64,000 nucleotides of DNA, taken from sequence record PQ613263; one strand, written 5' to 3'. The notes beneath the pieces are model-generated. The model saw only the letters and a program-made list of their open reading frames with translations. It searched no databases and was not told the origin of the DNA. Source of the DNA: Shigella phage Moonfish. Position numbers and translations under genes: made by a program. How positions within the stretch are numbered: the first letter of the stretch is position 1; each line of letters opens with the position of its first letter. Below, piece after piece: positions 26,634-27,798 of this stretch.

Positions 26634-26660
26634 ATAAAAAAGTCCATCCGAAGAGGGACT
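26633..26660 (-). terminator. Rho-independent terminator downstream of the tRNA region
   Basis: On the - strand a hairpin (agtcc...ggact) followed by TTTTTATTT. Confidence 0.4.
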
Positions 26661-26820
26661 TAGTAGCTTTTAATAGATAGCTGTATTTGAGCATTATAGT
26701 CTGCTCATACTCACACTCTTCTGTCGAAGAATATGTTTACAATACCTAGAGTGCCGGACTGTCTTACCGGCATTGTCTTTAGAGTGCTAAGCAATCAGGA
26801 CTATGTTCTCTATTAATGGG

Positions 26821-26894
26821 TGCCCACTACTGGATTTGAACCAGTGACTTTCCGATTATTAGTCGGTTGCTTTCCCCGTCTAAGCTAAGCGGGC
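26821..26894 (-). tRNA. tRNA gene (isotype unresolved; anticodon loop CTAATAA)
   Basis: Folded by hand: 7-bp acceptor stem GCCCGCT/AGTGGGC, D-stem GCTT/AAGC, anticodon stem-loop, T-arm ACTGG-TTCAAAT-CCAGT; 74 nt. Confidence 0.55.
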
Positions 26895-27094
26895 ATTGAT
26901 AGGTGAGTCCTGCCAGGCTTTAACTGGCTCCTTCTTCGCAATCCTTACATACCCCTACATAATTATTGCGTTAAGCTTTTTTGTTTAAGTTTAAGTGAAG
27001 GCGTTCTTGCTGACTCATAATTAGGTGAGGCGTTTGACGAATGACTAGTTCGTTACTACCTCGTTGTTTGCCATAAGTACCTGGCGACTTCAGG

Positions 27095-27168
27095 TAACGG
27101 GGGATGGAATCGAACCACCAGTACTAAGTCTTATTCGTGCACCAAGCACGCTAGTGGATTACTCCACC
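27095..27168 (-). tRNA. tRNA-like element (T-arm GGTGG-TTCGATT-CCATC); possible tRNA or pseudo-tRNA
   Basis: Canonical T-arm on the - strand; no complementary 5' acceptor strand found by hand. Confidence 0.25.
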
Positions 27169-27235
27169 GGAGGGAATCGAACCCCATCTACTTCACCAGA
27201 CCCGTCTTAATTCTTACAATTAGTGAGAACACTTA
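27160..27235 (-). tRNA. tRNA-like element (T-loop TTCGATT); possible tRNA or pseudo-tRNA
   Basis: T-arm motif GGGGTTCGATTCCC on the - strand; cloverleaf not resolved; only 66 nt from the neighbouring T-arm. Confidence 0.2.
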
Positions 27236-27308
27236 CCCTGGTTTAGGAGTTGAACCTAATTGGGGAGTAGTTTACGAACATTTTTCACTCCTTTCCCGGT
27301 AGCCAAGA
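27235..27308 (-). tRNA. tRNA-like element (T-arm TTAGG-TTCAACT-CCTAA); possible tRNA
   Basis: Perfect 5-bp T-stem with 7-nt loop; acceptor pairing weak (6 of 7 with two G-U). Confidence 0.25.
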
Positions 27309-27325
27309 TAAGAGTTCTCACGAAT

Positions 27326-27402
27326 TGGTTCCGGCGTCTGGACTCGAACCAACGAGAGAAGTAGCGACCAACTGCACATGCCTACGTGCTACCCCGACCA
27401 TT
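27326..27402 (-). tRNA. tRNA-like element with encoded 3' CCA (T-loop TTCGAGT); possible tRNA
   Basis: T-arm followed by 7 nt, discriminator A and CCA; D-arm-like GCAC-GTAGGCAT-GTGC upstream; acceptor 5' strand not found. Confidence 0.3.
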
Positions 27403-27798
27403 ATAATAGGAGGGAGGGGACGAGTCCTCCCTTCATACCCTATGTTACATGTAAGACCTAACATCTCGATGCTGGATGAATAGCTTAATAAACTATCCGA
27501 CATTATTGGTTAATGTTGTGCTCAACACGAGCGTTAGTTGATAAGGGATCTGAAGCCTTATCCCAAAGAAACCAACCTTTGGGATATAGCCTAAGATTCA
27601 GAAATGGCCCCCATAGGAGAGGCCATTGATTAACCCGAATGTTGCTTTACATTTTCTGAGATAACCCATTCTTAAAATAGTCTGTCTGACGGATGGGGAG
27701 CTACCCCTAGCGTCAGTGCCATACGGCAAAGATTAAGTTAAGAAAGGTTATGATAGGAGTTCCTATCTCAAAGGATTCTGACAGAACCCTTCACGATA

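Follow-up and report, generated by a model that had tools for sequence, protein, structure and literature searches.

In phage genome annotation the tRNAs of a locus are counted, and whatever else the locus contains is treated as spacer without content or is given small ORFs that are spurious. The island analyzed here, across which hypothetical proteins are annotated in Mimir124, pSb-1 and PhAPEC7, raises the question of what such a remainder contains: it holds five tRNA-type T-arm motifs on one strand, only one of which belongs to a canonical tRNA. An earlier note on this DNA had suggested that tRNAs of non-canonical form, fragments of tRNAs or structured RNAs of another kind might lie here; each of these fits some part of the island, covariation backs structured RNAs, and the supposed spacer proves to be full of conserved, covarying RNA structures.

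T-arm motifs and the canonical tRNA

The window (the whole stretch of 64,000 nucleotides from Shigella phage Moonfish, sequence record PQ613263) is from a Gamaleyavirus, a G7C/N4-like podophage, and Gamaleyavirus genomes are 89–95% identical to it in this region. The island is flanked by gp47- and gp48-like genes, and the gp47–gp48 interval holds tRNA-Asn, -Ser, -Thr and -Pro in N4 and Jura and tRNAs for Asn, Asp, Pro, Ser and Gln in Klebsiella N4-like phages. The earlier description of the region as non-coding is borne out, as there is no long ORF between the end of a gp47.2-like ORF at 27799 and the start of the next minus-strand ORF at 26633. The island is thus the tRNA locus of an N4-like coliphage, and comprises one normal tRNA, two tRNA-like RNAs (W2 and W3) and one dead hybrid (W1), together with the further elements listed in Table 1.

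Table 1. Features of the island, with positions in the window and the basis of each assignment
Feature	Positions	Strand	Basis
5' leader with strong hairpins	27403–27798	−	near-invariance among 9 Gamaleyavirus sequences
W1, T-arm 1, chimeric tRNA-like pseudogene	27326–27399	−	alignment A5, relatives' intact parents
W2, T-arm 2	27217–27327	−	A2 covariation, RNAalifold, R2 model
W3, T-arms 3 and 4, five-helix RNA	27093–27206	−	A1 covariation, RNAalifold, R1 model
W3/tRNA-Ile spacer with small hairpins, e.g. GCCAG-TTAAAG-CTGGC	26895–27092	−	conservation in Gamaleyavirus
Canonical tRNA-Ile, anticodon AAU, T-arm 5	26821–26894	−	ARAGORN, Rfam RF00005
W5, conserved structured segment just past tRNA-Ile	26747–26812	−	conservation from Gamaleyavirus to N4 and Kaypoctavirus
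Rho-independent terminator at island end	26632–26660	−	sequence and annotation in relatives

The T-arm consensus GGTTCRANYCC occurs on the minus strand at 27350–27340 (GGTTCGAGTCC), 27256–27246 (GGTTCAACTCC), 27183–27173 and 27116–27106 (both GGTTCGATTCC) and 26842–26832 (GGTTCAAATCC). These are the five sites listed in the earlier note, whose positions lie about 8 nt below the motif starts, within the approximation it had claimed. With a sixth copy within the vRNAP gene (18208–18198), the window contains six occurrences vs 0.28 ± 0.55 expected, and at least six were found in none of 100 shuffles.

T-arm 5, which had been folded by hand into a full tRNA, indeed belongs to one according to both ARAGORN, which calls tRNA-Ile(aat) at 26817–26895, and Rfam, where RF00005 matches the tabulated span with 63.8 bits. 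No other tRNA is found in the island by ARAGORN or by Rfam at E ≤ 10: neither program recognizes W1, W2 or W3 as a canonical tRNA (RF00005), and besides the tRNA-Ile the only Rfam matches at that threshold are bare T-loop matches to the tmRNA model. The earlier note had named two outcomes that would speak against it, five canonical tRNAs or none beyond the first, and the second is what the predictors gave; it rules out hidden canonical tRNAs down to E = 10 and leaves untouched the reading as other structured RNAs, for which covariation is direct support. The tRNA-Ile is present in most relatives and missing from G7C and St11Ph5, and sequence comparison suggests that it was inserted into a structure that N4 has uninterrupted.

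A chimera and two conserved RNA structures

T-arm 1, for which no matching acceptor stem had been found by hand, lies in W1, whose two acceptor strands derive from two different genes, so that there is no matching stem to be found. The 5' part is that of TL1, labelled tRNA-Ala(cgc) by ARAGORN in relatives, and the 3' part (CGCCGGA-ACCA, 27336–27326) is that of TL3; the encoded CCA end noticed earlier is the ACCA that follows T-arm 1 at 27329–27326. In alignment A5, W1 is identical to TL1 until CTCTCG; from there on the identity is to TL3 and takes in the junction with W2, which is of the N4 type, and the fusion point lies in the T-loop shared by both (TGGTTCGA, 27351–27344). Both parents are intact and lie ~500 nt apart in St11Ph5, ECBP1 and Bp4, and among 66 fetched loci the TL1–TL3 junction occurs in the window only. 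Judged by this alignment W1 is a dead hybrid from a crossover inside the T-loop: recombination between TL1 and TL3 at their common T-loop sequence deleted the ~500 nt between them and left W1, a clear example of recombination between tRNA-type genes. The fold of W1 has a z-score of −0.6. As for its parents, the TL3 hairpin covaries in a Klebsiella phage (A5), and the TL1 anticodon stem reads AGAAG, AGATG, AGCTG or AGTTG in relatives against a constant CTTCT, changes that are uncompensated.

The distance of 67 nt between T-arms 3 and 4 leaves no room for two tRNAs, as had been argued, because both are hairpins of the single RNA W3, a molecule of 111 nt (27206–27096). Its closing stem (27206–27201 with 27101–27096) is followed by a D-loop-like linker (UCUGGUGAAGUAGAU), T-arm-like hairpin A (27185–27171), hairpin B (27168–27153), hairpin C with a UUGGU loop (27150–27136) and hairpin D, a T-arm (27119–27103), which is separated by a 1-nt C spacer from the 3' strand of the closing stem; ACC comes after. 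W2 has a 23-bp closing helix, whose outer part overlaps the CCA of W1, and a three-way junction made up in order of an 11-nt linker, hairpin H (27291–27264, with an 18-nt loop), CCAA, the T-arm (27259–27243) and one A. The helix is fully paired and leaves no free acceptor end.

Comparison of homologues shows that both structures are conserved. In the W3 alignment (A1, 25 distinct sequences) 97.3% of cells are paired and 15 of 27 pairs are changed on both sides, and in the W2 alignment (A2, 11 distinct sequences) the corresponding values are 96.8% and 16 of 34; these are reached in none of 500 shuffles in either case, and slid controls give 40–59% for W3 and 35–52% for W2, although each alignment comprises only three or four deep clades, and counts of changed cells overstate the number of independent events. 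The double changes in W2 involve 15 of the 23 pairs of the helix, and the apical core is invariant. RNAalifold independently gives the five helices of W3 and essentially the same structure for W2, whose fold z-score is −3.7. Single-sequence folding of W3 is unexceptional (z = −1.15), and support for W3 therefore rests on covariation; its many G-U pairs on the minus strand (3–120, 25–39, 42–63 and 98–112) make the structure specific to the minus-strand RNA.

The family hallmarks of W3 are the closing stem, hairpins A and D with their T-loops, hairpins B and C, and invariant GG, GUAGAU, UAG, UUGG and GACUUA; in the window all five helices pair and every invariant stretch is present. The R1 model scores 143 bits on the window's W3 over the full model and 114–117 bits in T4-like phages, with next-best matches of at most 20 bits and weak full-length matches to real tRNAs (15–18 bits). 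The hallmarks of W2 are a helix of at least 23 bp, a UACCG linker, the hairpin H loop GUGAAAAAUGU, CCNAA and a T-arm UUAGG-N7-CCUAA; the window's W2 has every one of these, and matches the full R2 model with 132 bits. Neither RNA has a 7-nt anticodon loop, and W2 and W3 are thus unable to decode. Nor are they coding, as the only frame of W2 with a Shine–Dalgarno-type start, a mini-ORF (AAGGAG, 7 nt, ATG, 12 codons), has GAAG for GGAG and a 2-nt frameshifting insertion in N4, and W3 has indels of 1, 2 and 3–6 nt among its homologues. Two additional pairings were sought by eye, between the W2 linker and the hairpin H loop (a pseudoknot) and between the two linkers of W3; in both cases candidates seen in one clade are absent from the others. 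We conclude that W2 and W3 are two conserved, undescribed tRNA-like RNA families, and the pattern of substitutions indicates that both are under selection for RNA shape.

Homologues of W3 occur in Klebsiella N4-like and in T4-like phages, where they lie within tRNA clusters: in PEi20 W3 starts 2 nt past the CCA of tRNA-Met, and in VR5 it lies between tRNA-Met and tRNA-Arg, as would a tRNA gene. W2 homologues are found in G7C, N4, Jura, FSL SP-076/058, Pylas and KpCHEMY26, with Salmonella and Klebsiella N4-like phages among the carriers, and in the Yersinia T4-like phages TG1 and phiR1-RT; W2 and W3 are exchanged between N4-like and T4-like phages. Across loci the order of cassettes is collinear and their content variable, and by their sequences related phages carry different subsets of cassettes in one fixed order. 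The cassettes are dispensable, as W3 is present in roughly half of the Gamaleyavirus records and W2, among these records, in G7C and the window only. W2 and W3 patterns matched phage and metagenome contigs; a host origin was considered and dropped, as the same patterns gave no match in 185,579 species-representative genomes, in scans with exact patterns that diverged copies could escape. Literature searches for tRNA-like RNAs of N4-like phages or Gamaleyavirus turned up nothing but tRNAscan-SE counts in genome papers.

No match of W2 or W3 to any Rfam family was found. With canonical tRNAs they share a tRNA locus and a closing stem with an adjacent GGUUCRANYCC T-arm, but they have no D-stem, and they differ in having further hairpins, a 1-nt spacer ahead of the closing stem and a length of 111 nt. 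Conceptually closest are two RNAs of T4, species 1 and species 2 (rnaC and rnaD), of 119–139 nt; annotated as "small, stable RNA", they are encoded within the tRNA cluster, on the same strand as the tRNAs. The 3' end of rnaC is made up of a hairpin and a canonical T-arm, comparable to the W2 core, and homologues of rnaC and rnaD share T4-like tRNA clusters with W3 (VR5, VR25) or W2 (TG1). However, blastn and nhmmer find homologues of rnaC/rnaD in VR25, VR5, TG1 and PEi20 and none in the window island; the W3 model has no match in T4 and the W2 model only a local one to rnaC (13 bits, E = 2.2); and rnaC has one T-arm vs two in W3. An alignment by eye of the 3' hairpin and T-arm of rnaC with the W2 core (20 of 33 positions) has no blastn or nhmmer support, and identity of W2 or W3 with rnaC/rnaD was rejected. 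W2/W3 and rnaC/rnaD are separate families, and a puzzle that species 1 and 2 of T4 have posed for 50 years now spans at least two more.

YrlA, a Y RNA of bacteria and phages, resembles W2 in that its 5' and 3' ends form a long helix on which sits a module containing a tRNA-type T-arm. TruB and DusA modify YrlA, and in one case RNase P cleaves it and CCA is added (PMC4201824). W2, however, has no Rfam match at E ≤ 10 and no D-arm, and its elements stand in another order. The Ro-binding motif GNCGAAN0-1G (PMC4201824) was not seen, by eye, in the W2 helix sequences, and there is no Ro60/rsr gene among the annotated genes neighbouring the locus in relatives. W3 shares with tmRNA an acceptor-type stem, a stemless GG-containing linker and a T-arm loop that fits the tmRNA model, but has neither the coding domain nor the pseudoknots; the Rfam tmRNA models (RF00023, RF04321 and related) match T-loops only, with 6–11 bits vs a gathering score of 47. 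Membership of W2 or W3 in either YrlA or tmRNA is thus without Rfam support.

A predicted decoy role and its alternatives

We consider it likely that the island is a modular array of tRNA-type RNA genes that would yield stable tRNA mimics with a putative decoy role, the mechanism of which is inferred as follows. Transcription of the array would give a tRNA-operon-like precursor from which host tRNA-processing enzymes would excise W3, with RNase P forming the 5' end, followed by 3' trimming and CCA completion; W3 may be a poor RNase P substrate, given its 1-nt T-stem spacer and its closing stem of 6–7 bp. The 23-bp helix of W2 would be open to cleavage by RNase III. The products would then build up as stable tRNA mimics. 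Their loops and linkers are invariant (the GG dinucleotides, GUAGAU, the two T-loops and the loop UUGG). Each T-loop probably pairs with a GG loop into a tRNA-type elbow. The target that the mimics would bind or titrate would be a host factor recognizing tRNA by its elbow or acceptor shape, for instance a defence nuclease directed at tRNA or an enzyme of processing or modification.

The alternative that fares best is that W2 and W3 are merely cis-acting signals for processing or stability (RNase III sites, RNase P punctuation) with no role as free RNAs. The length of the W2 helix is that of an RNase III substrate, the CCA end of the cassette upstream lies within this helix, and the tRNA-like shapes are placed between other cassettes; but a helix or a minimal acceptor with a T-arm would suffice for punctuation, which leaves unexplained the invariant apical core of W2 and, in W3, the invariant linkers and two additional hairpins, and we regard this reading as unlikely.

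Also unlikely is the view that all four orphan T-arms are decaying, now functionless pseudogenes of an ancestral tRNA cluster. W1 is clearly such a remnant, the uncompensated anticodon stem of TL1 and the free gain and loss of cassettes would fit decay, and in relatives several neighbouring genes are labelled pseudo or undetermined by ARAGORN and tRNAscan-SE. Decay, however, would disrupt helices and would not keep unpaired nucleotides, whereas W2 and W3 keep 97% pairing with 15–16 doubly changed pairs, and their loops do not vary even between phage families, N4-like and T4-like; as judged from the alignments, covariation already contradicts the pseudogene reading for these two RNAs. Equally unlikely is the proposal that T-arm DNA is kept as a target of homing endonucleases or recombination, with the RNA structure incidental. 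The 27-bp recognition site of T4 SegB includes an 11-bp T-psi-C stem-loop motif, and cleavage occurs there (PMC2330249); an HNH homing endonuclease gene (gp47.1) adjoins the island in G7C, the W1 crossover falls exactly in the T-loop, and the locus is highly mosaic. The proposal leaves unexplained why helices distant from the T-loops show compensatory change and why there are G-U pairs exclusive to the minus-strand RNA, and at the island site an endonuclease gene is absent from the window. Such a mechanism probably accounts for the mosaicism, and not for the conservation of W2 and W3.

It is very unlikely that a phage tmRNA-like system hijacking trans-translation has its tRNA-like part in W2 or W3, the coding part having been lost in the window. 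Most relatives do have a tag-like frame in the same island (ANDDVVLMAA and variants, after CAUAAAU, with four synonymous versions of the terminal Ala-Ala codons) in a cassette that Rfam tmRNA_permuted matches with 27–33 bits, the long helix directly 5' of that frame has W2 as its apical domain in SP-076-like phages, and the stemless UCUGG linker of W3 resembles the D-loop of the tRNA-like domain of E. coli tmRNA. But the tag cassette is absent from both strands of the window, N4, G7C and T4-like phages carry W2 or W3 without it, and other tag-bearing phages have on the helix a different apical domain without a T-arm. The order of elements in W2 (hairpin, T-arm) is a misfit for the acceptor piece of a permuted tmRNA, a conserved G-U at the third closing-stem position (G3-U70) is found in neither W2 nor W3, and ARAGORN calls no tmRNA in the window or in any other scanned locus.

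The decoy reading can be carried further, into a more speculative form that we hold to be doubtful, in which W3 would be a "double-elbow" mimic whose two T-loops are each capped by one of its two invariant GG loops; the closing stem would carry one tRNA-type top half, and hairpins A, B and C would make up another in circularly permuted form. W3, probably W2 too, and the other cassettes of this hot-spot would be mobile anti-defence RNAs swapped between unrelated phage families. Exchange of such RNAs between N4-like podophages and T4-like myophages would blunt host immunity or host enzymes that recognize tRNA shape. Linked to this is the possibility that in relatives the island codes for a tmRNA-like system of a new, multi-piece kind, with W2 as one of its modules. 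If W2 and W3 do decoy tRNA-directed defence or processing enzymes, they would represent a new class of RNA-based counter-defence; the alignments, the covariance models and the natural presence/absence variants make their function testable.

Leader, spacer and terminator

The island has the transcription sense of the flanking genes, the minus strand, with a terminator (AGUCCCUCUUCGGAUGGACU, then a U-run) at its end; the annotations of G7C and PhAPEC7 have a terminator at the homologous site. A sigma-70 scan of the island gave nothing above chance, and the same simple scan overlooked the terminator too. Upstream of the terminator, W5 has an outer stem TAGAG/CTCTA, invariant AACAUAGUCCUGA and CUCUAAAGACAAU, and a hairpin GCCGG-UAAGACAGU-CCGGC (26771–26753) with double-sided change in three pairs. 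The hairpin that precedes tRNA-Ile has counterparts in N4 (GTTGG..CCAAC) and in Klebsiella phages (GCTGG..CCAGC).

At the other end of the island, the strong hairpins reported at 27440–27720 are present and almost invariant among relatives, and the leader contains two copies of a hairpin-pair unit (27799–27746 and 27587–27533). RNAalifold predicts 120 pairs in the leader with compensatory change in only 2, and because the sequence is so invariant, RNA structure here is plausible rather than proven. Gordonclarkvirinae phages, e.g. SU7, have an intergenic region with ~67% similarity to the 3' half of the leader.

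The locus and its T-arms

The island lies in a region that matches Gamaleyavirus genomes (G7C, pSb-1, St11Ph5, PhAPEC7, Bp4, ECBP1 and the UE phages; Schitoviridae, Enquatrovirinae) at 89-95% identity, in pieces, and it is read on the - strand between gp47.2-like and gp48-like genes; the 3,456-aa ORF at 14632-25002 (+) is the counterpart of the virion RNA polymerase (vRNAP) gene, found in the same place in these relatives. Judged by gene content, the island is the tRNA locus of the subfamily, since N4 and Jura have tRNA-Asn, Ser, Thr and Pro at the corresponding place, and Klebsiella N4-like phages have tRNA-Asn, Asp, Pro, Ser and Gln there. 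Pairwise mapping against nine relatives gives a mosaic of blocks of 90-97% identity with presence/absence breaks between them, and marker searches place the cassettes (TL1, helix + tag, TL2, TL3, TL4, W2, W3 and tRNA-Ile) in collinear order over all fetched loci, the subset present differing from phage to phage. No long ORF runs from 27799 to 26633, in agreement with the earlier note, which took the island to be non-coding, and the strong upstream hairpins are present as it described. The records of Mimir124 (L009), pSb-1 (L006) and PhAPEC7 (L007) show short 'hypothetical protein' ORFs across or beside the island, and even label neighbouring genes 'anti-CRISPR protein'; the ORFs annotated over W2, W3 and other cassettes are probably artefacts.

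Location of the elements discussed (window positions, or positions in a fetched relative's locus, L)
Element	Location	Strand	Description
Leader	27798-27403	-	400 nt, almost invariant in the genus
Leader hairpin-pair units	27746-27799; 27533-27587	-	two diverged copies
W1	27399-27326	-	carries T-arm 1
W2	27327-27217	-	T-arm 2
W3	27206-27096	-	T-arms 3 and 4, both within one RNA
W5	26812-26747	-	structured, just after tRNA-Ile; conserved from N4 to Klebsiella N4-like phages
Terminator	26660-26632		annotated in G7C and PhAPEC7
Group I catalytic intron	53917-54160	-	Rfam RF00028, 91 bits, full-length model match; unrelated to the island
TL3	L054 1444-1513 (N4); L001-L004		66 nt, D-armless, tRNA-like
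Tag frame	L003 1339-1374; L056 1356-1388; L041 766-798; L007 1264-1296; others
Leader-like region, SU7	L066 1175-1450		intergenic
tRNA-Gly(TCC)-like gene, VLCpiP4a	L041 559-636		after tRNA-Gln

The T-arm pattern GGTTCRANYCC matches the 64-kb window six times, always on the - strand, against a chance expectation of 0.28 +/- 0.55 (shuffles; 0/100 reach six). Five of the six (27350, 27256, 27183, 27116 and 26842) span 520 nt and are the five island motifs noticed earlier; T-arms 3 and 4 are indeed closely spaced (67 nt apart), and the encoded CCA reported after one T-arm is found as ACCA at 27329-27326. The sixth motif, GGTTCAAACCC at 18198-18208 (-), lies isolated within the vRNAP coding sequence, receives no tRNA call from ARAGORN and is most likely due to chance. 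Over the whole window ARAGORN returns a single gene, tRNA-Ile(aat) at 26817-26895, and Rfam at gathering thresholds a tRNA at 26821-26894 (63.8 bits); both programs thus call in the island only the one canonical tRNA that hand folding had recognized. Beyond it, a permissive Rfam scan (E<=10) of 26300-28100 yields just 11- to 13-nt tmRNA-model matches at two T-loops.

This sole canonical tRNA (-), with an AAU (Ile) anticodon that is unusual for bacteria and phages, is kept in most Gamaleyavirus relatives, and sequence comparison suggests that it was inserted into a structure which runs uninterrupted in N4. The adjoining W5 has invariant stretches (AACAUAGUCCUGA and CUCUAAAGACAAU) and a covarying hairpin (GCCGG/CCGGC, ATTGG/CCAAT, ACTGG/CCAGT). 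In the leader the repeated unit combines ATATC, a hairpin of 10 bp and a second hairpin, GATAGG..CCTATC, and the 3' half resembles a Gordonclarkvirinae intergenic region; in the Gordonclarkvirinae phage SU7 this intergenic region has, at ~67% identity, a single unit mixing features of both copies, plus downstream leader sequence.

Two families of structured RNA

W2 and W3 are two undescribed, well-supported structured-RNA families; selection on the transcribed strand maintains their RNA structure, they occupy tRNA-gene sites, and they are accessory, moving between phage families. The earlier proposal of non-canonical tRNAs, tRNA fragments or other structured RNAs is thus supported, and is made more precise by these two elements and W1.

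Searches with the W3 segment find it in about 27 Gamaleyavirus records and, at 75-79% identity, in Klebsiella Kaypoctavirus phages and T4-like myophages (VR5, VR25 and the TH phages, Dhakavirus; PEi20 and PEi26, Kanagawavirus; CkP1; KLB31). The myophage records leave it unannotated; it lies within the tRNA cluster, where tRNA-Met and tRNA-Arg flank it in VR5, and in PEi20 it begins 2 nt past the CCA end of tRNA-Met. Further copies came from pattern scans of metagenomes and IMG/VR, whereas exact patterns matched nowhere in 185,579 bacterial and archaeal genomes, one set of species representatives. The structure was read from 25 distinct sequences aligned with few gaps (A1). The 5' strand of the closing stem and a linker of 15 nt are followed by hairpin A (4 bp, loop UUCGAUU), hairpin B and hairpin C (5 bp, loop UUGGU); a second linker, of 14-16 nt, leads to hairpin D (5 bp, capped by a T-loop), and a single C separates D from the other half of the closing stem. 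Over this alignment 97.3% of cells are paired and both sides have changed in 15/27 pairs; 0/500 shuffles reach these values, slid controls pair 40-59%, and RNAalifold, unprompted, returns the same helices. Many pairs are G-U on the - strand only, and the functional strand is therefore the - strand RNA. Sequence is constrained in the loops, whereas the closing stem varies freely (GACGGG/CCCGTT, GGTGGG/CCCACT, GGCAAG/CTTGCC, CACGGCG/CGCTGTG); the invariant loops and linkers are GG, GUAGAU, both T-loops, UAG, UUGG and GACUUA. The loop of hairpin B is variable, of 4-10 nt, and W3 therefore has no anticodon. With its covariance model W3 reaches 143 bits in the window and 114-117 bits in the T4-like phages; no other hit, real tRNAs included, exceeds 20 bits.

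W2 carries its T-arm on a long helix. It is 99% identical in G7C and 84-85% in N4 and close relatives. Further copies lie in Salmonella phages (FSL SP-076 and SP-058), in Klebsiella phages (Pylas and KpCHEMY26) and, inside the tRNA region, in T4-like phages of Yersinia (TG1 and phiR1-RT). Over 11 distinct sequences (A2) 96.8% of cells are paired, a value that no shuffle reaches (slid controls 35-52%); the closing helix has 23 bp, with both sides changed in 15 pairs, one pair of hairpin H covaries, and the T-arm does not vary. Folded as a single sequence, W2 has a z-score of -3.7. The order of parts (stem, 11-nt linker for the D-arm, hairpin, 4-nt 'variable' linker, T-arm, 1 nt, stem) is like that of tRNA; however, at three times the tRNA length the stem is too long, and the loop of hairpin H measures 18-20 nt. 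E. coli RNase III cuts helices of this length, and the CCA of the upstream cassette pairs into the outer helix.

Known RNAs and a proposed mode of action

Both families belong with the already known tRNA-like small RNAs of phage tRNA clusters. In the T4 record rnaC and rnaD ('small, stable RNA; species 1/2') adjoin tRNA-Arg, and their homologues are found in VR5, VR25, TG1 and PEi20, thus coexisting with W3 or W2. Neither blastn nor nhmmer nor the covariance models linked T4 rnaC/rnaD to W2 or W3; the highest score was that of the W2 model on the 3' hairpin and T-arm of rnaC (13 bits, E = 2.2). W2 shares the general plan of YrlA (PMC4201824), a long helix with a tRNA-like module as cap, but inspection by eye finds no Ro-binding motif in its helix, and it has no Rfam YrlA match. 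W3 recalls the tRNA-like domain of tmRNA by its stemless GG linker, but is without the G3-U70 pair and the coding part. Literature searches returned no description of W2/W3-type elements, and genome papers give tRNAscan-SE calls only (e.g. Ile-AAT, Cys-ACA, Undet).

W2 and W3 would be co-transcribed with tRNA-Ile to the terminator, would be released by tRNA-processing enzymes (W2 by RNase III too), and may remain in the cell as stable mimics of tRNA. The presence in W3 of two T-loops and two invariant GG loops points to two tRNA-type elbows, and the confinement of its constraint to loops argues for reading by shape-reading factors and not by a specific aminoacyl-tRNA synthetase. A putative role in decoying or titrating a host factor that binds tRNA would suit a locus that is accessory, mosaic and horizontally exchanged.

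W1 and tRNA-like genes of relatives

In St11Ph5, ECBP1, Bp4 and pSb-1 the cassette TL1 (GGTCGGGGTAGCACG... running on to ...GCTGGTTCGAATCCAGCCCCTGACC), which ARAGORN calls tRNA-Ala(cgc), is followed ~500 nt downstream by TL3, also present in N4 and annotated tRNA-Undet in Jura. TL3 comprises a 7-bp acceptor stem (TCCGGTG/CGCCGGA), a long UGCA-capped hairpin, a T-arm and an encoded ACCA, and its fold z-score is -2.8. When the three are aligned (A5), W1 is identical to TL1 as far as CTCTCG and to TL3 from TGGTTCGAGTCC on, the N4-type junction ...ACCAATTCGT to W2 included; W1 is, as read from this switch of identity, a clear T-loop crossover within TGGTTCGA (27351-27344), common to TL1 and TL3. 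The acceptor stem that could not be found by hand for T-arm 1 is missing because its two strands come from different genes. The T-stem is one pair short, the fold is unremarkable (z = -0.6), and a W1-type junction is absent from the other 66 loci; W1 is interpreted as a remnant that no longer functions. For recombination at T-arm DNA there is a precedent in T4 SegB, whose cleavage site contains the T-psi-C motif (PMC2330249), and an HNH homing endonuclease gene adjoins the island in G7C.

TL3 hardly differs between N4 and Gamaleyavirus, and in one Klebsiella phage it shows covariation; TL4 is a ~125-nt tRNA-like gene with ACCA whose acceptor stem covaries (TATCAGT/ACTGATA vs TACCAGT/ACTGGTA). 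The tRNA-Gly(TCC)-like gene of Klebsiella phage VLCpiP4a is in neither the record nor the ARAGORN output.

Most N4-like relatives have in this island a tmRNA-like tag frame after CAUAAAU, always preceded by a long helix (CTATC..GAGTAC/GTACTC..GATAG), of which W2 is the apical domain in SP-076-like phages; the window has no tag frame. The variants are ANDDVVLMAA*, ANDDVVLMVA*, ANDDVILMAA*, ANDDVVLMSA* and ANEEAYLMVA*, and the final Ala-Ala is encoded in four synonymous codon versions, which suggests that the peptide is under selection. The tag cassette of relatives scores 27-33 bits with Rfam tmRNA_permuted, and ARAGORN makes no tmRNA call on the tag-bearing relatives. At the tRNA-Ile position, Klebsiella Kaypoctavirus phages (L040, L029, L043) have a non-canonical tRNA-like gene, GGGGTCG...CGACTCC-ACCA, with an atypical 11-nt T-loop and, in the acceptor stem, the identity element of AlaRS, a G3-U70 pair; the same phages also have the tag cassette.
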